Source: Candidatus Nealsonbacteria bacterium (GTDB taxonomy: Bacteria > Patescibacteriota > Minisyncoccia > Minisyncoccales > JAUWAW01). From it: a DNA stretch of 64,000 nt. A program made the position numbers and the translations under genes. Below the pieces are notes generated by a model, which searched no databases, was not told the DNA's origin, and saw only the letters and a list, made by a program, of their open reading frames with translations. Numbering within the stretch: the stretch's first letter is position 1; every line of letters begins with the position of its first letter. Positions 754 to 60,819 of this stretch are shown here, one piece after another. Where the stretch lies: positions 7,410 through 71,409 of the forward strand of contig JAUWAW010000002.1 of assembly GCA_030601865.1 (NCBI GenBank). The letters are read 5' to 3'.

Positions 754-1137
754 ATGGCAGAAGAAAATATTAAAGAAATTTTAGAAAAGCACAAAGAAGA
801 AACTAAGCGGCATTTTGATGTGGTAGCTGAGGATTTGAAAGGCGAGATAAAAATTGTTGCCGAACAGGTGGTGGCTAACGCCGAAAAATTAGAAGAACAT
901 ACTCGAATACTGGCAAGTCACACCCGAATACTAGAAAACCACAGTCAAATACTGGCAAGTCACACCAGAATACTAGAAAGTCACACCCAAAGATTCAACA
1001 AAATTGATGAAACTCTTGAAACCATCAAGACGGATATTGAATTTATTAAACACGAACTCAAGCAAAAAGTTGGCCGCGACGAATTCGCTGTTTTAGAAAA
1101 ACGAGTAAGCATGCTGGAAGCAAAAGTAAGCAGATAA
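754..1137 (+). CDS. Small coiled-coil protein with five tandem 7-aa (21-nt) repeats HTRILAS/HTRILEN/HSQILAS/HTRILES/HTQRFNK
   Basis: Intact 127-aa ORF followed by a strong terminator. The heptad periodicity is visible in both DNA and protein. I recognise no family. Confidence 0.5.
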   Translation: MAEENIKEILEKHKEETKRHFDVVAEDLKGEIKIVAEQVVANAEKLEEHTRILASHTRILENHSQILASHTRILESHTQRFNKIDETLETIKTDIEFIKHELKQKVGRDEFAVLEKRVSMLEAKVSR

Positions 1138-5879: not shown

Positions 5880-5913
5880 TACGAAATACGAATTTATACG
5901 AATAGTATGAATT
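5880..5913. repeat. Cluster of four (T)ACGAAT heptamer units (heptamer-repeat family)
   Basis: ACGAAAT ACGAATT TA TACGAAT AG TATGAATT, sitting just 5' of the GH3 gene start. It is the same heptamer found inside several CDS. Track ORF 5871..6095 is a translation artefact of this region. Confidence 0.6.
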
Positions 5914-16467: not shown

Positions 16468-16728
16468 TTAAGCTGATGCTAAACTGTTTTTGATTCTTTT
16501 TTTCAACTGAGTATATGCCTGAGCAAATCTTTTTAGATTATCCTCTCTATATCTAGTATCAGCTTTAGCTCTGTATGCCTCGTAATAAATAAGGTCAAAA
16601 GGAGCTTTGTTTTTAGTTGACTTACTTTTTCCAGTATTATGTTCTTCAAGCCTTCTTATTAAATCATTTGTATAGCCAATATAAACACTGTTATCTCTTT
16701 TACTTCGTATCAAGTAGATATAATACAT
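16468..16728 (-). CDS. GIY-YIG nuclease domain protein (stand-alone, 86 aa)
   Basis: MYYIYLIRSKRDNSVYIGYTNDLIRRLEEHN is the GIY-YIG motif set. The ORF is exactly bracketed by inverted CCCAGAAAGCTT / AAGCTTTCTGGG. Confidence 0.8.
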   Translation of the reverse strand: MYYIYLIRSKRDNSVYIGYTNDLIRRLEEHNTGKSKSTKNKAPFDLIYYEAYRAKADTRYREDNLKRFAQAYTQLKKRIKNSLASA

Positions 16729-18531: not shown

Positions 18532-20841
18532 ATGGTATACAATCCTCAAAAAATTGAGCGGAAATGGCAGAGGGTTTGGGAAGAAGCCGGGATTTTTAAA
18601 ACCTCTGACAAGATTAAGGGCAAGAAGAATTTTTATCATCTGGTAATGTTTCCCTATCCTTCAGGGGATTTACACATTGGCCATTGGTATAATTTCGCTC
18701 CGGCTGATGTTTATGCCCGCTTCAAAAGAATGCAGGGTTTTAATGTAATGAGCCCGATTGGCTTTGATGCCTTTGGTTTACCTGCTGAAAACGCAGCTAT
18801 TAAACACGGTATCCATCCCAAAACCTGGACTTATAAAAATATTGAGAGGATGAGAAAACAATTAAAATCAATGGGTACGATTTATGATTGGCAAAGAGAA
18901 ATTATTACCTGTGACCCAGATTATTATAAATGGACCCAGTGGTTGTTTCTCCAATTTTACAAAGCCGGCTTGGCCTACCGCGCAAAAGTGCCAGCCAATT
19001 GGTGCCCCTCCTGTAAAACAATTTTAGCCAACGAACAAGTCATTGAGGGCAAATGTGAAAGGTGCGACTCAGATGTTTTGCAAAAAGAAATTGAACAATG
19101 GCTTTTTAAGATTACTGATTATGCTGAAAAGTTGCTCAAAGACCTGGATAAATTGGACTGGCCCGAGAGAACAAAAACGATGCAAAAGAATTGGATCGGG
19201 AAGTCCGAGGGCTATGAAATTAAATTTTCATCAATCCCTGTCTTCACTACGCGGCTTGACACCATATTTGGATGTACCTACTTGGTTTTGGCACCAGAAA
19301 ATCCAATCATTGAAAAATTAAAAAACAAAATTACCAATTACCAAGAAGTTAAAAGATACATTGAGAAGTCAAAGAAAAAAACAGAAAGAGAGCGCCTCAG
19401 CGAAGCAAAAGAGAAAACCGGGGTTGAAATCAAAGGAGTAAAAGCAATAAATCCAGCTAACGGAGAAAAGATTCCCATCTGGATGGCTGACTATGTTCTG
19501 ATAGGCTATGGCACTGGCGCTATTATGGCAGTACCTGACCGCGATGAACGCGACATGGAATTTGCCAAAAAATACAATCTGCCAATTAAAAAAACAAGGT
19601 TAGTTGATAGTAAAAAAATTGCTAAGAAAGTTAAAGGCAAAAAGATAACTAATTACAAGCTTCGCGATTGGGTAATTTCTCGCCAGAGATACTGGGGAGT
19701 GCCTATTCCAATGGTAAAATGCCAGAAATGCGGCTGGGTACCTGTTCGGGAGAAAGATTTACCAGTATTGCTGCCGACCCTAAAAGATTTCCGGCCAACT
19801 GGTAAGGGCAAATCCCCCTTGGCCAAATCAAAAAAATTCGTTCAAACAAAGTGTCCAAAATGTAAAGAATTAGCAGAAAGGGAAACCGACACTATGGATA
19901 CTTTTGTCTGCTCCTCCTGGTATTATTTAAGATACACTGACCCTAAGAATAAAAAGAAATTTGCTGACCCCAAAAAATTAAAGGCCTGGTTGCCGGTTGA
20001 TATGTATATAGGGGGCGCCGAGCATACAGTGATGCATCTTTTATACGCCCGATTTTTTACCAAGGCCTTGCAAAAACTTGGCATTTTAGATTTTTCAGAG
20101 CCGTTTTTACGGTTGCGCCACCAAGGAATTATCTTGGGTCCCGACGGTCAAAAAATGTCAAAATCCAGAGGAAATGTTATAGACCCGGATATTCAAGTTA
20201 AAAAATATGGTGCTGATGCGGTCAGAATGTATCTCTGTTTTATGGGACCCTATGACCAAGGGGGTCCTTGGCAGCCAAGAGGGATTGTGGGCATAGCAAG
20301 GTTCTTAGACAAAATTTTCAATTTTCAATTTTCAATTTTCAATGACCAAAATTCTAAACTTAAAAAGCTATTACATAGAACAATTAAGAAAGTCACGGAG
20401 GATATTGAAAACTTTCGGTTTAATACGGCGATTTCAGCTTTAATGATTTTGGTCAATGAGATGCAGAAACAAAAAGGTCTAGAACCCGAGGTTAGACCTA
20501 CATTATTAAAATTACTGGCGCCCTTTGCCCCGCACTTTGCCGAAGAACTCTGGTCCTCCTTCGCTAAAGCTTCGGAGGATAAACATTTTGATATTAAAAA
20601 TTCAGTTCACAATCAGAAATGGCCCAAGTATAATCCAAAACTAATTAAAGAAGAAATGATAACTTTGATTATCCAGGTCAATGGCAAGGTACGAGCCAAA
20701 ACAGAAACAGAAGCAGGTATTTCAAAAGAAAAAGCTAAAGAACTTGCTTTATCTTGTGAAAAAGTGCGAAAATGGACAGAGGGCAAGAAAATAAAGAAAA
20801 TAATCTTTGTGCCAGATAAATTAATCAATATTGTAATATGA
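18532..20841 (+). CDS. leuS: Leucyl-tRNA synthetase
   Basis: HIGH motif (PSGDLHIGHWYN), KMSKS (QKMSKSRGN), CP1 and Zn-finger CxxC pairs. Carries in-frame repeat inserts at 20314-20341 and about 20553-20580. Confidence 0.92.
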   Translation: MVYNPQKIERKWQRVWEEAGIFKTSDKIKGKKNFYHLVMFPYPSGDLHIGHWYNFAPADVYARFKRMQGFNVMSPIGFDAFGLPAENAAIKHGIHPKTWTYKNIERMRKQLKSMGTIYDWQREIITCDPDYYKWTQWLFLQFYKAGLAYRAKVPANWCPSCKTILANEQVIEGKCERCDSDVLQKEIEQWLFKITDYAEKLLKDLDKLDWPERTKTMQKNWIGKSEGYEIKFSSIPVFTTRLDTIFGCTYLVLAPENPIIEKLKNKITNYQEVKRYIEKSKKKTERERLSEAKEKTGVEIKGVKAINPANGEKIPIWMADYVLIGYGTGAIMAVPDRDERDMEFAKKYNLPIKKTRLVDSKKIAKKVKGKKITNYKLRDWVISRQRYWGVPIPMVKCQKCGWVPVREKDLPVLLPTLKDFRPTGKGKSPLAKSKKFVQTKCPKCKELAERETDTMDTFVCSSWYYLRYTDPKNKKKFADPKKLKAWLPVDMYIGGAEHTVMHLLYARFFTKALQKLGILDFSEPFLRLRHQGIILGPDGQKMSKSRGNVIDPDIQVKKYGADAVRMYLCFMGPYDQGGPWQPRGIVGIARFLDKIFNFQFSIFNDQNSKLKKLLHRTIKKVTEDIENFRFNTAISALMILVNEMQKQKGLEPEVRPTLLKLLAPFAPHFAEELWSSFAKASEDKHFDIKNSVHNQKWPKYNPKLIKEEMITLIIQVNGKVRAKTETEAGISKEKAKELALSCEKVRKWTEGKKIKKIIFVPDKLINIVI
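20314..20341. repeat. Tandem heptamer ATTTTCA x4, in frame in leuS
   Basis: Read as FNFQFSIFN. Same 7-nt periodicity as the ATTCGTR arrays elsewhere. Confidence 0.7.
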
Positions 20842-27955: not shown

Positions 27956-29221
27956 TCAAACTTTTTCATATAGTTTTTGAAACTCCTCACGGGCGACTTG
28001 GCGGTCATCCCAGGGAATCTTTTCATTATTTGCTATACAAATCCAGGGTTCGCAGCCCTTGCCGGTAATTATAATTGTATCGCTCGGCTGAGCCATTTCC
28101 AAGGACTTTCGGATGGCTTCCCGTCTGTCTAAAATTGTTCTTGCCTTGATGCCTGCGCCGTTGGCAACTTGATTGATAATTTCCATTGGGTCTTCGTCAT
28201 ACGGGTCTTCATTGGTAATAATTATCTCTTTGCAGTATTTTGCTGCTATCTCTCCTAAAATTTTTCTTTTCCACTTGTCTCTACCCCCACCGCAAGCCCC
28301 CAGCACACAAATCAGATGTTTAACTTGCGATGTTAAACATTCGTAAACTTGTTTAAGGGCATTGGGCGTAAAAGCATAATCAACAATTACTCTGAAGGGA
28401 CTGGAAATAACTTTTTCCATTCTGCCTGGCACACCTTTTACTTTTGCCAGCGCTTGCTTACACTGCTCAAGAGAAACACCCTGCGATAAACCAATACAAA
28501 TAGCGGCTAAAGCGTTATTAATATTGAATTTGCCAAGTAAACGAATTACGAATTTAGAATTATGAATTAAGAATGAAATGCTTTTGTCTTCCACGTTTAT
28601 TTCTTTTGCTTGTACTATCTTTAAATTCGTGATTCGTGATTCGTGATTCGTGATTCCATAACCATAGATTATCTCGGCTGGGAATTGTAAAAAATAATCA
28701 GCGTTTTTGTCGTCTATGTTTATAATATGCGTTCCCTTGCATATTTTAAAAAATTTTCCTTTAGTTTCTCTGTAATTTCCAAAGCTTCCGTGACGTTCAA
28801 TATGTTCTGGAGATAAATTAGTAAAAACAGCCGCAGCAAAATCAATAAATCTGTGGCGGTGCTGTAAAATACCCTCTGAGGTTACTTCTAAAACTACGTA
28901 TTTACAGCCAGCCCGAACTGCCTGCCTCAAGAATTTTTGCAGCTGAAATCTGCCCGGCATTGTCATTTTCAATTTGTTTTCTTCTTCTCTATTGCCAATC
29001 TTGAACTTTATTGAAGAAGCCGAAGCCACTCTATACCCCGCCTCCTCTAAAATTTTTGTCGCCAAATTCACGGTGGTTGTCTTGCCATTAGTGCCGGTAA
29101 CTCCGATAACCGTTAATTTCCGCGAAGGAAATCTATAAACAATTGCGCCCAAAAAAGCCAGTAAAAAATGATACCAATTGATTAAAAAACCAGGGATAAT
29201 TTTTTTGATTATTGCTTTCAT
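27956..29221 (-). CDS. Mur ligase family protein (MurE-like UDP-MurNAc-tripeptide synthetase)
   Basis: P-loop VIGVTGTNGKTTT, central and C-terminal Mur ligase domains (DYAFTPNAL). In-frame heptamer-array hairpin at 28541-28656. Confidence 0.8.
   Translation of the reverse strand: MKAIIKKIIPGFLINWYHFLLAFLGAIVYRFPSRKLTVIGVTGTNGKTTTVNLATKILEEAGYRVASASSIKFKIGNREEENKLKMTMPGRFQLQKFLRQAVRAGCKYVVLEVTSEGILQHRHRFIDFAAAVFTNLSPEHIERHGSFGNYRETKGKFFKICKGTHIINIDDKNADYFLQFPAEIIYGYGITNHESRITNLKIVQAKEINVEDKSISFLIHNSKFVIRLLGKFNINNALAAICIGLSQGVSLEQCKQALAKVKGVPGRMEKVISSPFRVIVDYAFTPNALKQVYECLTSQVKHLICVLGACGGGRDKWKRKILGEIAAKYCKEIIITNEDPYDEDPMEIINQVANGAGIKARTILDRREAIRKSLEMAQPSDTIIITGKGCEPWICIANNEKIPWDDRQVAREEFQKLYEKV
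28541..28656. repeat. Inverted pair of heptamer arrays, in frame in the Mur ligase gene
   Basis: 5x NNGAATT (ACGAATT ACGAATT TAGAATT ATGAATT AAGAATG), a 49-nt spacer, then 4.5x ATTCGTG. Translated as GITNHESRITN...IHNSKFVIRLL. Confidence 0.75.
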
Positions 29222-30468: not shown

Positions 30469-30507
30469 AATACGCCATAATTCTGCCATGGCTTTCTTAC
30501 GGCGTAT
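30469..30507. repeat. AATACGCC palindrome, copy C1
   Basis: AATACGCCATAATTCTGCCATGGCTTTCTTACGGCGTAT. It supplies the spurious upstream ATG (30488) of the next ORF. Confidence 0.75.
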
Positions 30508-30523
30508 ATGTTATAATGAGATA

Positions 30524-31108
30524 ATGACTAAATATAAATATTATTTTAGGAAACCGAGGTCGGAAATTGTTAAAGATGTTCTTTCGTGGTTAATGGTGGC
30601 TGGAATGATTTATATAGCTGCCGGTTCTCCGTATTTTGTTGCAAATGTTTCAAAAAGCTTTAAGAAGGCGCGAAAATATAAAAAGAAAAGGGTCTATGAT
30701 ACTTTTTATAAATTACAAAAACAAGGGTGCATTAAGATTACGAAGAAGAATAAGCAAATTTACATTAGCTTAACGGAAAAAGGTAGAAAGAAAGCGGGGT
30801 GGCTTCAGATAGATAGTTTGAAAATAAAAAGACCTAAAAAATGGGACGGCAAATGGAGAATAGTTATTTTTGACATTGCTCAACTTAAAAAAATGTATCG
30901 TGAGGCATTTCGAGGGAAATTAAAAGAGTTAGGATTTCGCCCCTTGCAAAAGAGTGTCTGGATTCATCCCTTTGACTGCCAAGATGAAATAGAACTCTTG
31001 AAAGATTTTTTCGGATTATCAGAAAAAGAAATGCGATTTATTGTTGCCCAAGACATTGGCCAAGACGATAAAATTAAAAAGAACTTTAACCTTTCACAAC
31101 CAAATTGA
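30524..31108 (+). CDS. PaaX-C-terminal-like domain protein with N-terminal TM/wHTH-like region
   Basis: KKWDGKWRIVIFDIAQLKKMYREAFRGKLKELGFRPLQKSVWIHPFDCQDEI is the W-G-W-(I/V)-FDI...GF..LQ.SVW..P pattern. The ORF is flanked by C1 and C2. Confidence 0.55.
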   Translation: MTKYKYYFRKPRSEIVKDVLSWLMVAGMIYIAAGSPYFVANVSKSFKKARKYKKKRVYDTFYKLQKQGCIKITKKNKQIYISLTEKGRKKAGWLQIDSLKIKRPKKWDGKWRIVIFDIAQLKKMYREAFRGKLKELGFRPLQKSVWIHPFDCQDEIELLKDFFGLSEKEMRFIVAQDIGQDDKIKKNFNLSQPN

Positions 31109-31127
31109 AAAGCAAACTAGGACACAC

Positions 31128-31167
31128 AATACGCCATAAGAAAGCCATGGCTTTTTTATGGCGTATT
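31128..31167. repeat. AATACGCC palindrome, copy C2 (inverted relative to C1)
   Basis: AATACGCCATAAGAAAGCCATGGCTTTTTTATGGCGTATT. Confidence 0.75.
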
Positions 31168-31176
31168 GGTAAAGCA

Positions 31177-31248
31177 ATGCAAGTTGTTCCTAACCTCGAC
31201 TTTAAACACGCGGCTGAAATCCGCGACTTGATTAAAAAATTAAAATAA
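31177..31248 (+). pseudogene. Orphan UVR-motif mini-ORF (probable 3' remnant of uvrB or another UVR-domain gene)
   Basis: MQVVPNLDFKHAAEIRDLIKKLK resembles the UvrB C-terminal NLEFEEAAQIRDQL motif. There is no upstream body; it starts right after repeat C2. Confidence 0.3.
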
Positions 31249-31265
31249 TTTAATATAAAATCACT

Positions 31266-31532
31266 ATGCCAATAACTAAGTCAGCTAAAAAAGCGTTGAG
31301 GCAGAATATAAAGAGGAGGAAGCGAAATATTCAGAGGAAAAGGAAAATAAAAGACCTTATCAAAGAGGTGAGGAATTTAGTTGCTCAAAAAAAGATTGAA
31401 CAAGCCAAAAAACTCCTGCCCAAAATTTACAAGGCCTTAGATAAAACAGCCAAAGTCGGCGTCATAAAAAAGAATACCGCCAGCCGAAAAAAATCAAGAA
31501 TAACAAAACTGACCGCGAAGCGGTCACCCTGA
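31266..31532 (+). CDS. rpsT: 30S ribosomal protein S20
   Basis: MPITKSAKKALRQNIKRRKRN... is a typical S20 basic helical protein. Confidence 0.85.
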   Translation: MPITKSAKKALRQNIKRRKRNIQRKRKIKDLIKEVRNLVAQKKIEQAKKLLPKIYKALDKTAKVGVIKKNTASRKKSRITKLTAKRSP

Positions 31533-43638: not shown

Positions 43639-44369
43639 ACTTTTAAATTAGAGTATATTTCCTGCACTGCTTCGTTCTCGTCCAAGGCCTCAAACAATTT
43701 CTGGGCTACCTCTTTTTCTTTTTGTCCTTTCTCAATCTCTTCTTTGGCTACCCAGTCCAAAGAAGCTGAATCAATCTTAATACCCTTTTCTTCTAAAGCC
43801 CGCTTGACGCTCTCTAAATCCTCTGGTTTTGTATAAACATCTAAAAGGTCTTGGTGCCAATAGAGGTTTTCTGCTCCTACCTCAATTGCTTTTAGTTCCA
43901 ATTCCTCTTTTTCTTTATTCGTATATTCGTAAGTATTCGTAATTCGTAGAGTTACACAACCTTTTCTTTCAAAAAGCCATTTGACCGACCCTCCACCAGC
44001 CAGTTTGCCATTATGCTGCTGCAAAACCTGCTTAATTTCAGCTAATGTCCTATTTTTGTTGTCAGTAATGCCTTCAATAATAATAGCTATATTTCCTGGC
44101 CCATAGGCCTCAAAAAGAATCTCCTCAAGCTTTGCGCCCGGCAGCTTGCCAGTTCCCCTCTGTATAGCTCTTTGGACATTGCTTTTTGGTAGATTGTACT
44201 TTTTGGCCTCTTCCAAGGCCTGTCTTAATTTCGGATTCATCTCGGGGTCGCCTCCATCCTTTGCTGCAACCGAAATCATCCGAGCCAGTTTGGAGAAAAC
44301 CTTGCCCCGTTTTTGGTCCTCCACGGTTTTACGGTGCATCACTGTCTTGAAATGACTATGGCCGCTCAT
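43635..44369 (-). CDS. yebC: YebC/PmpR family DNA-binding regulator
   Basis: MSGHSHFKTVMHRK...GGDPEMNPKLR signature. In-frame heptamer insert at 43917-43948. Confidence 0.88.
   Translation of the reverse strand: MSGHSHFKTVMHRKTVEDQKRGKVFSKLARMISVAAKDGGDPEMNPKLRQALEEAKKYNLPKSNVQRAIQRGTGKLPGAKLEEILFEAYGPGNIAIIIEGITDNKNRTLAEIKQVLQQHNGKLAGGGSVKWLFERKGCVTLRITNTYEYTNKEKEELELKAIEVGAENLYWHQDLLDVYTKPEDLESVKRALEEKGIKIDSASLDWVAKEEIEKGQKEKEVAQKLFEALDENEAVQEIYSNLKV
43917..43948. repeat. ATTCGTA heptamer cluster (4 units), in frame in yebC
   Basis: ATTCGTA T ATTCGTA AGT ATTCGTA ATTCGTA, translated as LRITNTYEYTNKE. Confidence 0.7.
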
Positions 44370-51960: not shown

Positions 51961-53685
51961 TTATTTGAGGTATTTCAATAGCTTCTCTAATGGCTGGGTA
52001 TTGATAATATCTTTCTTCTCTGCCCAGCCGCGGCGGGCTTGGGCTACACCTAAATTCATAAAACGCATCTGGTCTTTTTGGTGAGAATCGGTATTGATAA
52101 TCATTTTGACCCCTGCTTCTTTTGTCCTACGGACATTTTGGTCGCTTAAATCCAGCCTTACTGGGAAAGCATTTATTTCTAAGATGGTTTTAGTTTGTTT
52201 AGCCACCCTTAAAATCTGGTCAAAATCAATTTGATATTCATCGCGCCTCTTTAATATCCTGCCAGTCGGGTGAGCAATAATCTTGATAAAAGGGTTTTTC
52301 ATTGCCTTGATGAGCCGTTCTGTCATTTTTTGCTTGTCCATCTTAAAACTGGAATGGATGCCCGCAATAGCATAATCTAATTTTTTCAAGGCCTTGTCCT
52401 TAATATCGATTGAGCCATCCTTAAGAATATTTGTCTCTGCCCCCTGTAAAATCTTGATTCTTGATTCTTGATTCTTGATTCTTCTGTTTAATTTATCAAT
52501 CTCTTTTCTCTGCTGGCCCAGCTGGCTTTCGTTTAAGCCCCTCTCAATTCTTAAAAATTTTGTATGGGAGGAAATGCCAATATATTGATAGCCTAAGCCC
52601 ATAGCCGTCCGGGCCATTTCTAAAATAGTATTTTCTCCGGCATCCCAGTCGCAGTGGCAGTGAAGATCGCCCTTAATGTCTTTCATTTCCACTAATTTGG
52701 GCAAATTGTTTTTGAGGCAGGCCTCAATCTCTCCTTTATCCTCTCTGAGCTCTGGCGGCGGACAAACCATTTTTAGATATTTATAAATTTCTTCCTCGGT
52801 TTTGCCAGCTACCATCTTGGCGCCCCTGAATAAGCCGTACTCATTAAGCTTTAACCCTTTATCCATAGCAATTTTTCTCAAATGGATATTATGCTCTTTG
52901 GAACCGGTAAAATACTGAAGCGCTGCTCCGTAGCTCTTTTTTTGAACCACCCTTAAATCCACGTCAAACCCTTGTTCCATTCTGACTGATGATTTGGTGT
53001 TTCCTTTACCCCAAATTTTAATTACTCCAGGTAAAGAAACAAAAAAATCCATTACCTTGCCTGGATTTTTGGTGGTCACTAAAATATCAACATCACCAAT
53101 GGTCTCTTTCATGCGTCGCAAAGACCCAGCCATGCTAATCTGGTCAATCTCTTTAAGTTTTTTTAATCTTTCTAAAATTTCTTCTGTTTCAAGTAAAATT
53201 TCCGCCAAGAGAAACCTACCTTTGCTTTTTTTAAGAAAAGCAATACCTTCTAAAATATTCTTCTCTGTTGTCTCGTCAAACCCGAAAAGAGGAGCAATTT
53301 TATGGGCTTTGGCTGCTTTTTCTAAGTCCTTTAAATTCTTAATGCCCAACTTCTGATACAAAACCTTGGCTTTCTTTGGTCCCAGTCCTTCAACAGCAGT
53401 AATTTCAGCCAAGTCAATAGGGGTTTTCTTTTTTAACCTTTCATAATATTTAATTTTCCCTGTCTTTAAGTATTCCTTAATCTTTAGGGCAATATTTTCT
53501 CCTATACCCGGAAGCTCTTCCAGTGCCTTAACCCCTCCTTTTTTATAAATTTCTTCAATATCTTCTTCTAATGTTTCCAAAGTCAGGGCTGCTCTTTGAT
53601 AGGCATAGGGTTTAAAAGCCACCTCTTCCATTTCTAAATAAGCGGCTATTTCATAGAATATCTCGGCAAGTTGCTGATTTTGCAT
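51961..53685 (-). CDS. polX: Family X DNA polymerase with C-terminal PHP domain
   Basis: HhH motifs LPGIGENIALKI / VEGLGPKKAKVL; catalytic GSLRRMKETIGDVDILV; PHP HCHCDWDAG...SHT. In-frame heptamer insert. Confidence 0.88.
   Translation of the reverse strand: MQNQQLAEIFYEIAAYLEMEEVAFKPYAYQRAALTLETLEEDIEEIYKKGGVKALEELPGIGENIALKIKEYLKTGKIKYYERLKKKTPIDLAEITAVEGLGPKKAKVLYQKLGIKNLKDLEKAAKAHKIAPLFGFDETTEKNILEGIAFLKKSKGRFLLAEILLETEEILERLKKLKEIDQISMAGSLRRMKETIGDVDILVTTKNPGKVMDFFVSLPGVIKIWGKGNTKSSVRMEQGFDVDLRVVQKKSYGAALQYFTGSKEHNIHLRKIAMDKGLKLNEYGLFRGAKMVAGKTEEEIYKYLKMVCPPPELREDKGEIEACLKNNLPKLVEMKDIKGDLHCHCDWDAGENTILEMARTAMGLGYQYIGISSHTKFLRIERGLNESQLGQQRKEIDKLNRRIKNQESRIKILQGAETNILKDGSIDIKDKALKKLDYAIAGIHSSFKMDKQKMTERLIKAMKNPFIKIIAHPTGRILKRRDEYQIDFDQILRVAKQTKTILEINAFPVRLDLSDQNVRRTKEAGVKMIINTDSHQKDQMRFMNLGVAQARRGWAEKKDIINTQPLEKLLKYLK
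52451..52484. repeat. Tandem heptamer ATTCTTG (about 4.5 units), in frame in polX
   Basis: ATCTTG ATTCTTG ATTCTTG ATTCTTG ATTCTTC, translated as RRIKNQESRIKIL. Confidence 0.7.
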
Positions 53686-56979: not shown

Positions 56980-57000
56980 AATAAGTTTATTTTATCATAT

Positions 57001-57033
57001 ATTCGTATGGCGTATTCGTAACGCTATTTACAT
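57001..57033. repeat. 33-nt conserved block upstream of dnaA (copy F6)
   Basis: ATTCGTATGGCGTATTCGTAACGCTATTTACAT. 30/33 identical to 60787-60819. Confidence 0.7.
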
Positions 57034-57137
57034 AATAACAGAAAATCAAGAATAGCCCAAATCCCTCATTTTTGTTAATAACCTGGGGACAAGATGTGGA
57101 ATTTGACTGTATTGCGATTCGGTGTTATATTTAATCT

Positions 57138-57272
57138 ATGTCCATTACTTACCAACCCAAAAGAAAAAAAAGAAAACGCACCCATGGTTTTAGAAAAAGA
57201 AGTAAAACAAAACCAGGCAGAAAGATTTTAACAAGAAGACGTGAGAAAGGCCGCCACAAGCTTACAGTTTAA
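57138..57272 (+). CDS. rpmH: 50S ribosomal protein L34 (not in ORF track, 44 aa)
   Basis: My translation: [44 protein letters not shown]. Canonical L34, upstream of rnpA. Confidence 0.92.
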
Positions 57273-57295
57273 GGTAGAAGTTTAAACATCACATT

Positions 57296-57646
57296 ATGCT
57301 GCCCAAGGAAAATAGATTAAAAAAGAAAAAAGATTTTGAAAATGTTTTTAAAAAAGGAAAAGGATTTAAAGAAAAATTTTTGTTTTTGAAGATAAGAAAA
57401 AATGAATTAAATGTTAACCGATTTGGTTTTGCGGTCAGCTTAAAAGTTTCAAAGAAAGCAGTAGTTCGTAATAAACTTAAAAGGCAACTACGAGAAATAG
57501 TAAAGGCAAAATTGCCTCAAGTAAAACCTGGAATAGATGGGATAATAGTTGTTCTTCCGGGCCTGGAAGATAAAAATTTCCAGCAAATAGAAGAAATAGC
57601 TAATAAATTGTTCAAAAAAGCAAAAATAATTAACAATACGACATAA
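57296..57646 (+). CDS. rnpA: Ribonuclease P protein component
   Basis: LPKENRLKKKKDFENVFKKGK and the RNR-like motif KKAVVRNKLKRQLRE. Confidence 0.88.
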   Translation: MLPKENRLKKKKDFENVFKKGKGFKEKFLFLKIRKNELNVNRFGFAVSLKVSKKAVVRNKLKRQLREIVKAKLPQVKPGIDGIIVVLPGLEDKNFQQIEEIANKLFKKAKIINNTT

Positions 57647-57898: not shown

Positions 57899-58618
57899 AT
57901 GAATGTTTTCATTGCCATTTTCAATACGGTTCTTTACCAGCCATTATTTAATGTCCTGGTATTGTTCTATGAATACATTCCCGGGCATGATTTTGGAGTC
58001 GCGGTGATTGCTTTGACTTTTTTGATACGGATTCTAACCTATCCCTTGGGCATCAAAGCCATTAAATCCCAAAAAGCTATCTCTGAAATTCAGCCAAAAC
58101 TAAATGAAATTAAGGAAAAATACAAAGATGATAAAGCAGCGCAAGCTAAAGCCACCATGGAGGTTTACCAAAAAGAAAAAATCAACCCTTTTTCTGGTTG
58201 CCTGCCTTTATTGATTCAATTCCCGGTCTTGCTGGCTCTTTTTCGGGTATTTTGGAGGGGATTTTCTGCAGAACAGATGGTTTATCTTTATAGTTTTGTC
58301 CCCCATCCCGGCCAGATTGACCCTAGTTTTTTGGGCGTGATAGACCTTAGTCACCCCTTTGCTGTTTTAGCGGTTTTAGCCGGAGTTTGTCAGTTTATTC
58401 AAACAAAAGTGATGACACCTAAACAAAAGGTCCAAAAGAAAAAGGGAGGTGATTTCTCTTCTATGTTCCAAAAACAAATGCTTTATTTCTTCCCAGTTTT
58501 TACTGTTTTAATTGTCTGGCGACTTCCTTCAGCTATTGCTCTTTATTGGATAACTACTTCTTTGTTTTCCATCGGCCAGCAACTTTTGGTTCTGCGAACC
58601 AAAAGTCAAGAACCTTAG
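57899..58618 (+). CDS. yidC: Membrane protein insertase YidC (short, Gram-positive-like form)
   Basis: LTYPLGIKAIKSQKAISEIQPKLNEIKEKYKDD, INPFSGCLPLLIQFPVLLALF. Confidence 0.88.
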   Translation: MNVFIAIFNTVLYQPLFNVLVLFYEYIPGHDFGVAVIALTFLIRILTYPLGIKAIKSQKAISEIQPKLNEIKEKYKDDKAAQAKATMEVYQKEKINPFSGCLPLLIQFPVLLALFRVFWRGFSAEQMVYLYSFVPHPGQIDPSFLGVIDLSHPFAVLAVLAGVCQFIQTKVMTPKQKVQKKKGGDFSSMFQKQMLYFFPVFTVLIVWRLPSAIALYWITTSLFSIGQQLLVLRTKSQEP

Positions 58619-58645
58619 AACCTAAGAACCTAAAAATATAAAAAT

Positions 58646-59107
58646 ATGCTTAACAGAGATAGTTTAAAACAAATTAAGAAAATAGTGGAGGAGTTTTTTG
58701 ACAAGATGGACATTCCAGTGGAAATTCAGGTGTTGTCTCTAGAAGAAAAGACCCTTCCCATAAATCTGAAAGTAGAAGAACCTCGCTTTTTAATTGGAGA
58801 AAAAGGCTGCACCCTAACCGACATCCAGCGGCTTTTAGCAGTTATCTTAAAGAGAAAAATTGCCGGACCCTTTTATCTTAATCTTGATATCAATGATTAC
58901 AAAAAGAAAAAAGCCGAATATTTAAGAGAAACCGCCCGTTCAATGGCTGACGAGGTAGCTTTAACCAAAAAAGAAAGGCAGCTGCCGCCAATGTTGGCTG
59001 CGGAAAGAAGAATTATCCATTTAGAATTGGCTGACAGAGCAGATGTGGCCACCGAAAGCATGGGCCAAGACCCCATAAGAAGAGTCGTCATCCGGCCGTA
59101 TCCCTAA
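58646..59107 (+). CDS. jag: Jag/KhpB-type RNA-binding protein (KH + R3H)
   Basis: Position after yidC; the C-terminal R3H region PMLAAERRIIHLEL. Confidence 0.8.
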   Translation: MLNRDSLKQIKKIVEEFFDKMDIPVEIQVLSLEEKTLPINLKVEEPRFLIGEKGCTLTDIQRLLAVILKRKIAGPFYLNLDINDYKKKKAEYLRETARSMADEVALTKKERQLPPMLAAERRIIHLELADRADVATESMGQDPIRRVVIRPYP

Positions 59108-59143
59108 AAACCTAAAAACCTAAAAATATAAAAAACAAAACTG

Positions 59144-60784: not shown

Positions 60785-60786
60785 TT

Positions 60787-60819
60787 ATTCGTGTGGCGTA
60801 TTCGTAACGTTATTCACAT
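60787..60819. repeat. 33-nt conserved block abutting the start of pilin-fusion gene 1 (copy F7)
   Basis: ATTCGTGTGGCGTATTCGTAACGTTATTCACAT. Contains TTATTCACA (60810-60818), which fits the DnaA-box consensus TTATNCACA. Confidence 0.7.

Follow-up and report, generated by a model that had tools for sequence, protein, structure and literature searches.

Perfect 7-nt arrays within housekeeping genes

The 64-kb stretch of DNA analysed here (the window) has a G+C content of ~39% and carries housekeeping genes, the nearest relatives of which belong to metagenome-assembled Candidatus Nealsonbacteria and other Parcubacteria (Patescibacteria, or candidate phyla radiation, CPR). Three of these genes, encoding a Mur ligase, PolX, and LeuS, contain perfect tandem arrays of 7-nt units, 31–32 nt long, all of which are read in frame. 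Arrays were detected with Tandem Repeats Finder (TRF) and with a scan for exact runs, and both methods agreed. Apart from these three, the window had no perfect arrays of at least three copies at periods 5–7 or 9–12, and local shuffles of the window sequence yielded zero arrays. An earlier note on this DNA had claimed tandem heptamers embedded in frame in at least five essential genes. The shuffles, TRF, and the exact scan confirmed the arrays in the three genes named above, and their in-frame translation was confirmed as well; the count of five was not sustained, since only four genes had been listed, and the essentiality of polX and yebC had been assumed.

The Mur ligase gene (27956–29221, minus strand) encodes a MurE-like protein of 421 amino acids with the Pfam domains Mur_ligase_M and Mur_ligase_C, and it hosts two arrays in inverted orientation. 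Arm A (28625–28656, minus strand) is the perfect array (ATTCGTG)x4.6, which reads (CACGAAT)x4.6 on the coding strand, scores 100% in TRF, and encodes residues 189–199 (ITNHESRITN). Arm B (28543–28574, minus strand) is an imperfect array of NNGAATT x4.6, corresponding to (NNAATTC)x4.6 on the coding strand, with a TRF match of 80%; it encodes residues 216–227 (FLIHNSKFVIRL). The arms are separated by a 50-nt spacer (28575–28624, minus strand) consisting of native Mur ligase sequence, LKIVQAKEINVEDKSIS. In polX (51961–53685, minus strand), the perfect array (TCTTGAT)x4.6 occupies positions 52452–52483 on the minus strand; it reads (ATCAAGA)x4.6 on the coding strand and specifies PolX residues 401–412 (RRIKNQESRIK). 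In leuS (18532–20841, plus strand), the perfect array (AATTTTC)x4.4 at positions 20313–20343 (plus strand) is translated into LeuS residues 594–604 (IFNFQFSIFN).

A fourth site lies in yebC (43916–43948, minus strand), where a decayed array of (T)ACGAAT copies encodes YebC residues 141–152 (LRITNTYEYTN). The earlier note had read it as four tandem copies of ATTCGTA. However, the TATTCGTA/ATTCGTA copies start 8, 10, and 7 nt apart (7, 10, and 8 nt in coding-strand order), and there is no strict tandem array. The proposed common ATTCGTR type applies to the units of the Mur ligase gene, yebC, and polX, which differ by 1–2 bases, but not to the leuS unit, which differs by 3–4. The hexamer ATTCGT occurs 30 times in the window compared with 18 expected, and 16 of the 30 occurrences fall inside the clusters. 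Outside the clusters it is not enriched, and a genome-wide over-represented word of the uptake- or Chi-signal type was rejected.

The exact sequence of the window Mur ligase was found on one 73.6-kb contig only in a collection of 5.8 billion sequences, in which its best identity to any protein was at most 69%. The other window proteins likewise occur on a single contig, and the databases contain no second strain of the window's species; for PolX, there is one nearer relative (L085, 81% identity). Variation at short evolutionary distance was examined in clusters of at least 90% identity from related species, in members with a readable array region. All sequences were metagenome-assembled.

Period 7 in related CPR genomes

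For a wider census, 88 loci of related CPR genomes were added to the window, giving 652 kb in total, and TRF arrays were counted from 3.5 copies and 80% match upwards. A 50-kb stretch of E. coli DNA served as the non-CPR control. TRF reported 35 rows at period 7 versus 1–10 at each of periods 3–6, 8, and 9, with 10 rows at period 6, 8 at period 8, and 2 at period 9. The 50-kb E. coli control contained no period-7 arrays.

Twenty-seven of the 34 non-overlapping arrays lie inside long open reading frames (ORFs), and seven lie outside. As ~90% of the DNA is coding, these numbers correspond to ~46 arrays per Mb of coding and ~110 per Mb of non-coding DNA, that is, a 2.4-fold higher density in the latter. 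Copy numbers range from 3.6 to 5.7 in coding and non-coding arrays alike. All perfect coding arrays have units that are free of stop codons in all three frames of the coding strand, and no coding array with a stop in its consensus unit is perfect. Among the seven non-coding arrays, four have stops on both strands and two more on one strand. These patterns of density, copy number, and stop codons are what would be expected of a general array-forming mutational process combined with selection on frame and stops. The earlier reasoning that a non-triplet period places a frame constraint on genic arrays holds.

Units within one genome are only marginally more alike than units of different genomes (mean distance 2.19 versus 2.63; permutation p = 0.058, 16 genomes), which leaves the idea of a genome-specific unit set by a sequence-specific trans factor with marginal evidence. 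There are only 222 AT-rich, stop-free cyclic heptamer classes. The recurrence of units in unrelated genes, such as those encoding IKNQESR and NSKFKIQ, is therefore largely expected.

One locus of the census, L067, has an intergenic palindrome of two adjacent inverted heptamer arrays (positions 1406–1465), in which GAATTAT/GAATTAG x4 is followed by GC and then by ATAATTC/ATTATTC x4–5. Its unit resembles that of Mur arm B.

The polX site

The array segment of the window PolX aligns without gaps to the sequence rrfnethgppy of T. thermophilus PolX. Among 120 CPR orthologues (71–81% identical), most carry N-x-K-F-x-x-x-N-x-K-F-[RK]-ILQG at the position of the window's array. The PolX orthologues show 148 identity runs at offset 7, about half of which originate from two conserved helical motifs elsewhere in the protein, compared with 0–5 runs at offsets 4, 5, 6, 8, and 9, and 16–70 at offsets 10–12, the latter stemming from other conserved motifs. 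In the 54 distinct variants of the segment, positions 2 and 9 accommodate 13 and 12 residue types, respectively, and are identical to each other in 44% of the variants (mutual information 1.92 bits). Offsets 5, 6, and 8 give 0–19% identity, except for one lysine-rich pair at offset 5 with 39%.

The DNA of the polX site was compared in five species. The flanks are identical (GATAAATTAAAT ... ATTTTRCARGG) and the total length is the same, while the unit differs from species to species: AGAATCA in the window (x4.6), AGATTCA in L085 (three perfect and two degenerate units), and AAATTCA (x5.7), AAATGTC (x5.0, perfect), and AATTTCC (x5.7) in further relatives, so that L085–L088 all carry arrays with other units at the orthologous site. 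An array-less short form, represented by L089, is 12 nt shorter and equals T. thermophilus PolX in length.

The array segment evolves ~4 times faster than the rest of the protein. At less than 5% protein divergence, the 12-residue segment shows 0 differences; at 10–15% divergence it shows ~7, compared with 1.6 expected from the rest of PolX. This rate, together with the joint change of all units between species, makes the site a fast-evolving spot on a between-species time scale. Within clusters of at least 90% identity, we found no copy-number variation: the array segment was identical in 35 PolX sequences of four clusters, drawn from many samples, and likewise invariant in the 7 YebC and 14 Mur ligase members that could be read. 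The earlier idea of mutational hot spots applies between species but, as far as the clusters show, not within them. The same proposal had named constant unit numbers across strains and conserved peptides in distant orthologues as observations that would speak against it. Both occur in the relatives: the arrays are invariant within clusters, and the peptides are conserved in position, in the case of YebC also in sequence.

Three PolX sequences of the cluster represented by P0186 (P0511, P0512, and P0513) are N-terminal fragments on separate contigs, all ending ~20 codons before the array. Reads that differ at the array could have interrupted the assemblies there, or the ends may coincide by chance.

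The two arms in the Mur ligase gene

Orthologues of the window Mur ligase, from Nealsonbacteria and other Parcubacteria, are 61–69% identical to it. In an AlphaFold model of the window protein with a mean predicted local distance difference test score (pLDDT) of 89.3, arm A forms a coil between the strands 184–189 and 200–204, with the lowest pLDDT of the central region (72). The corresponding linker is hypervariable in the orthologues. L081, L082, L011, L071, L076, and many further proteins have arrays at this site, and the linker peptides, which are array-encoded or 7-residue-periodic, include RIKNQESRIKN, RNQESGIRNQES, IKNHELRIKN, KIKNQKSKIKN, and KFKVQSSKFKV, among others.

When arm A is reverse-complemented and aligned with arm B, 16 of 21 positions agree, compared with a typical background of 10–14. 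Arm B is modelled as a β-hairpin (strands 215–219 and 222–226, pLDDT >90), the length of which is conserved in array-less orthologues; arm B therefore overlays an existing hairpin and is no simple insertion. Its AATTC core occurs in all three codon phases, which identifies arm B as a true array at the DNA level and not as the by-product of a protein repeat. The 50-nt spacer also aligns with array-less orthologues, for example L007. It is hence native Mur ligase sequence and not the interior of an inserted element. Both arms are found at the same places in the syntenic loci L081 and L082, where the spacer measures 51 nt. The unit of arm A is AATCACG in the window, AGAATCA in L081 (x4.7, perfect), and GAATTAA/GAATCAT in L082. 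Arm B is imperfect in all three species because a perfect array would contain an in-frame TAA.

A separate loop of the Mur ligase, between VYQTL and ICVLGACGGGR, comprises 6 amino acids in array-less orthologues, to which the window belongs at this position. In six genomes it is extended to 10–12 amino acids by arrays with the units CTAACTA, CAAGAGA, TCAAAAG, AAATTTC, AAACCCT, and AACTACA.

The two arms had been proposed to form a 115-nt hairpin around a 49-nt spacer. The inverted, imperfect arm B is real and the spacer measures 50 nt, but the predicted hairpin is weak. As DNA, the segment comprising both arms and the spacer folds with -15.3 kcal/mol (z = -2.6), and as RNA with -17.8 kcal/mol (z = -1.3). 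Homologous RNA segments of two relatives gave z = +0.5 and -3.2. The consensus fold retains just 4-bp GAAU:AUUC blocks, with 1 of 18 pairs being compensatory, and an Rfam scan of the window detected only tRNAs. Because the z-scores are weak and unconserved and there is a single compensatory pair, we rejected a selected 115-nt hairpin.

Two Mur ligases of the comparison set, P0053 and P0545, are identical at 413 of 420 residues and differ by a 7-amino-acid in-frame indel, LRQAQGK, located after KILEEA. The same peptide occurs in UvrB of L016 (TLRQAQGKAGKK). This GC-rich insert is unlike the arrays; it appears to represent another class of in-frame insert, 21 nt long, that does vary between strains.

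Further coding sites

At the point of its decayed array, YebC is 6–8 amino acids longer than the proteins of PDB entries 1lfp and 1kon. Most of 120 CPR orthologues have LRITNxYEYTN or another 7-residue-periodic peptide in this loop, and the shortest orthologues have ~7 amino acids fewer there. In LeuS, the array is part of the linker that joins the RFL(D/E)K(I/V)W helix to LHKTIKKV; this linker is hypervariable throughout the orthologues. Other CPR LeuS proteins contain period-7 peptides in the same linker or elsewhere, with six in P0482. UvrB carries an array just before FPAxFWV in six genomes, and ArgRS has one at the same place in two genomes. The earlier note had regarded the arrays as insertions; the alignments reveal arrays at the same site in many species, so that they are not private to this genome. 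On this comparison of sequences, they are old orthologous features rather than insertions.

Many of the LeuS representatives (P0361–P0510) are 1000–1344 amino acids long, whereas the window protein has 769. Large insertions, which may be inteins or other inserted domains, break their match up into 2–5 stretches. In relatives, uvrB adjoins the genes for S20, RuvA, and the Mur ligase. In the window, this place (30488–31532) is taken by a PaaX-like gene, behind which lies a 47-amino-acid ORF with a UVR motif (31105–31248). This suggests that uvrB was lost or replaced in the window, leaving a C-terminal remnant.

Intergenic motifs and other features of the window

Three intergenic sites had also been listed as copies of the heptamer. 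None of them is a tandem array; two consist of spaced boxes and one of irregular copies. A 34-nt motif at positions 57000–57033 (minus strand), 21 nt upstream of the dnaA start, contains two TACGAATA boxes 13 nt apart and no tandem heptamers. Between this motif and the ATG of dnaA lies TGATAAAAT, which resembles an extended -10 element. At dnaA of L085 (positions 2080–2150), the -10-like part is kept, and GGATAT repeats replace TACGAATA. The second copy of the motif (60786–60819, minus strand) directly precedes the first ATG of an ORF resembling type IV secretion system (T4SS) pilins; it contains TTATTCACA, which matches the DnaA-box consensus. Two (T/C)ACGAATA boxes spaced by 13 nt match twice in the window, with 0 matches expected. 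At positions 5880–5913, between the end of the ComEC gene and the start of the GH3 gene, TACGAA(A/T) copies are irregularly spaced. The arrangement TACGAAT-N3-8-TACGAAT occurs 3 times in the window versus 0.01 expected. The 34-nt motif shared by dnaA and the pilin-like ORF looks like a species-specific operator or promoter element. Neither the intergenic TACGAAT copies nor the hairpin is part of the phenomenon seen in the coding arrays.

In the segment 55612–57650, dnaA (minus strand) diverges from a 45-amino-acid ORF without a Pfam match (57094–57231), rnpA, yidD, and yidC. The cumulative GC skew has its minimum at ~54–62 kb of the window, and the replication origin probably lies near 56980–57300. 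Period-8 repeats are located behind two consecutive gene ends, at 58608–58647 (AAGAACCT x3.2) and 59103–59134 (CCTAAAAA x4). Both end in CCTAAAAATATAAAAA, which may be a shared promoter or terminator signal. A 21-nt repeat (x4, 71% match) at positions 904–988 belongs to the ORF 754–1137 (plus strand) for a small protein of unknown function. It encodes HTRILAS/HTRILEN/HSQILAS/HTRILES, i.e. a 7-residue repeat in DNA without 7-nt periodicity. Between the genes for tRNA-Ala and tRNA-Arg, there is a free-standing ORF for an 86-amino-acid GIY-YIG nuclease (16468–16728). In the relative L082, a LAGLIDADG ORF adjoins RtcB, and homing-endonuclease-like genes appear to be common in this neighbourhood.

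Comparison with known repeat systems

Heptanucleotide repeats are described as the most abundant class of long simple sequence repeats (SSRs) in most prokaryotic genomes; DNA polymerase slippage has been proposed as their cause, and genes mostly lack repeats whose unit is not a multiple of three (Mrazek et al. 2007, as summarised in PMC4679880 and PMC4692102). According to the accounts in PMC4679880 and PMC4692102, the GGGAATC arrays of Xanthomonas mostly have ~4 units and can form inverted pairs. We compared the arrays with this family, with GGGGAYT (STRR) of Nostoc, and with TAACTGA of Beggiatoaceae. They share with these SSRs the tandem 7-nt units, the prevalence of ~4–5 copies, the occasional inverted pairs, and slippage as a proposed origin; head-to-tail copies reach at least three and exceed chance, and period 7 is favoured over its neighbours. 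Two further properties of prokaryotic heptanucleotide SSRs were not found: the location is not mainly intergenic, with 27 coding arrays among 34, and the clusters from related species show no copy-number polymorphism between strains. Known families lie overwhelmingly between genes, with one dominant unit per genome, whereas the arrays described here mostly lie in frame in housekeeping genes and vary in unit. Furthermore, they occupy orthologous sites of the proteins, with all units changing at constant length.

The hmw promoters of Haemophilus influenzae contain 7-bp repeats that act as phase-variable contingency loci (PMC8262952). There, as here, the repeats are non-triplet, and a change by one unit would alter expression or frame. 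However, contingency tracts are long, vary between strains, and reside in genes for surface structures or host interaction. With 4–6 units in housekeeping genes, in which a frameshift would do harm, and no variation in clusters, the arrays were not assigned to this class.

In Borgs, repeats inside ORFs have unit lengths that are all divisible by three (PMC9879509). Perfect nucleotide repeats in ORFs, low-complexity or disordered segments, and fast, genome- or lineage-specific evolution are common to both systems. The 7-nt unit, which is translated in all three frames, sets our arrays apart from the amino acid tandem repeats of Borgs.

Rickettsia palindromic elements (RPEs) are dispersed copies of a palindromic consensus of ~100–150 nt that lie in frame in protein-coding genes. 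The arrays resemble them in that repeat-derived DNA is tolerated in frame at surface-exposed sites of housekeeping proteins. In contrast to RPEs, they have no common consensus, form segments of 30–40 nt, and evolve in place. With a native spacer between the Mur arms as well, we rejected an RPE-like element or a palindromic miniature inverted-repeat transposable element (MITE).

The ribbon-helix-helix protein omega of pSM19035 binds heptad parS/operator arrays, of which at least four units are needed (PMC9499535). These arrays also consist of contiguous 7-bp units, direct or inverted, and one unit of the window, AATCACG, resembles WATCACW. Omega sites, however, are found in plasmid promoter regions, follow one consensus, and have a cognate protein, and none of these was found in the 64-kb window. 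In the literature on heptanucleotide and tandem repeats in CPR/Patescibacteria, we found no earlier account of heptamer arrays that lie in frame within housekeeping genes. New features are that the arrays reside in conserved housekeeping genes, that they persist at orthologous sites, and that all of their units change while the length stays constant.

Origin and maintenance of the arrays

Since 7 is not a multiple of 3, an array is read in all three frames and yields a peptide with a 7-residue period. We consider it probable that the arrays represent microsatellites of 7-nt units which are tolerated in frame where the protein is permissive, filtered for frame and stops, and repeatedly re-homogenised, as a trait of a Parcubacteria/Nealsonbacteria-like lineage. 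We infer the following course. Arrays would arise by slipped-strand mispairing or by conversion within the array during replication or repair, and only events with a net change of 0 or 21 nt would survive in genes. Surviving genic arrays would be those with a unit that is stop-free in every frame of the coding strand, with a net length that preserves the reading frame, and with a placement in a loop or linker or, in one case, overlaying a β-hairpin without a change in length. A base change would then spread to all units of the array of one species while the total length is held. The periodicity of arm B may stem from templated (quasi-palindrome) correction, with arm A as the template. Because slippage by a single unit breaks the frame and a change by three units was never observed at polX, conversion-like outcomes without a net length change are favoured. 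They could consist of a paired gain and loss of units or of the repair of out-of-register slipped duplexes.

Several observations weigh against this explanation. Copy-number polymorphism is missing from the clusters of at least 90% identity, and 21-nt length variants were not seen at the polX site among the 120 orthologues. A re-expansion by 3 units is not easily achieved by simple slippage in an array of ~5 units, and slippage leaves homogenisation at constant length unexplained. The length differences do not fit either: the long form of polX exceeds the array-less form by 12 nt rather than 21, the array-bearing Mur loop is longer by 4–6 amino acids rather than 7, and the β-hairpin that arm B overlays is conserved in length, an outcome that insertion cannot yield. 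Even with so strict a filter, arrays in coding DNA are common. Finally, the 35 census rows derive from loci gathered near a small number of genes, so that the census is biased, and orthologous arrays do not count independently. A variant in which 21 nt are inserted from a seed of 1.5 units, which would explain the peak at 4.5 copies, was rejected on the basis of the polX and Mur loop lengths. It is further contradicted by the same copy range in non-coding arrays and by the intergenic heptamers of Xanthomonas, which mostly have 4 units. A gain of 7 amino acids fits yebC only.

Alternatively, a CPR-specific process might write and rewrite perfect 7-nt arrays at constant length by replication or repair in a 7-nt register, for example by iterative templated synthesis during gap or break repair, or a factor that reads 7 nt might select them. 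We regard this as possible, though tentatively and at clearly lower probability than tolerated, re-homogenised microsatellites.

It is rather unlikely that the periodicity is under selection because the arrays are functional nucleic acid elements, namely heptad sites for a protein that docks with one dimer or domain on every 7 bp or nt, such as those of the ribbon-helix-helix omega type or with cold-shock domains, or a selected Mur hairpin in DNA or mRNA. Perfect periodicity is indeed kept at constant length across species, the inverted pair of arms is conserved in three species, and TACGAAT repeats lie near three gene starts. AATCACG, the Mur unit, deviates from the omega heptad WATCACW at only one of 7 positions, and with 4.4–4.6 units the window arrays reach the at least four contiguous heptads required for omega/ParA activation (PMC9499535). 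The units, however, differ from array to array within a genome and from species to species at a given site, without a common consensus, and their similarity within genomes is marginal, as given above. Array positions follow permissive protein loops. The stability of the hairpin is not conserved (RNA z-scores of -1.3, +0.5, and -3.2, one compensatory pair), Rfam matched only tRNAs, and the 20 small ORFs of the window, which represents 64 kb of the genome only, encode no ribbon-helix-helix or omega-like domain.

Less probable still is a very small mobile or templated element that inserts in frame, comparable to RPEs or the small dispersed repeats of cyanobacteria. Such an element would account for IKNQESR (unit AATCAAG) in the window PolX, the L081 Mur ligase, and the YebC protein P0321, for NSKFKIQ in UvrB, PolX, and LeuS, and for the palindromic double array between genes of L067 with its GAATTAT unit like that of arm B. 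Apart from AT-richness and stop avoidance, which leave 222 classes, the units have no shared consensus, though, and neither a transposase nor any other enzyme that could act on the arrays accompanies them. The native protein sequence between the Mur arms and the single-base differences shared by all units of same-site arrays, as in evolution in situ, also argue against it.

We give about as little credence, or slightly less, to selection at the protein level for 7-residue peptides, such as flexible linkers or β-hairpin repeats, with the DNA periodicity as a by-product. The arrays do encode loops and linkers rich in N, K, Q, S, and T, LRITNxYEYTN of YebC is conserved across many species, and the strands of the arm B β-hairpin are 7 residues apart. 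But such selection acts at a period of 21 nt and cannot yield exact 7-nt identity across three codon phases. The two repeats remain identical to each other although their residues vary freely from species to species, arrays of this kind are denser in non-coding DNA, and the DNA of the five polX sites is itself periodic rather than a non-periodic synonymous coding of the peptide. Chance matches or assembly artefacts are effectively refuted, for although all sequences are metagenome-assembled and three PolX fragments end close to the array, shuffles gave zero arrays, and the arrays are in frame in conserved genes and recur in independent ENA, JGI, NCBI, and Logan assemblies made with different assemblers.

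Implications for CPR genomes

As slippage usually disrupts the reading frame, conserved genes would be expected to lose microsatellites with a non-triplet unit. In this CPR clade, such repeats are kept at the same sites of PolX, Mur ligase, UvrB, YebC, LeuS, and ArgRS, internally perfect and with units that differ among species. Should a lineage-specific 7-nt process exist, dozens of housekeeping proteins would have fast-evolving, species-specific loops with a 7-residue period, which would represent a new mode of concerted evolution within essential genes and provide a marker of species identity. If the arrays proved to be a genome-wide feature, they would point to a strong mutational process in a 7-nt register in organisms that are not yet culturable, and would offer a natural system for repeat homogenisation without length change as well as fast in-gene markers for resolving species in metagenomes. 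For annotators, they would be a warning against treating low-complexity inserts in housekeeping genes of CPR bacteria as assembly errors, since such inserts are real, and they would explain in part the variability of loops and linkers in CPR proteins.

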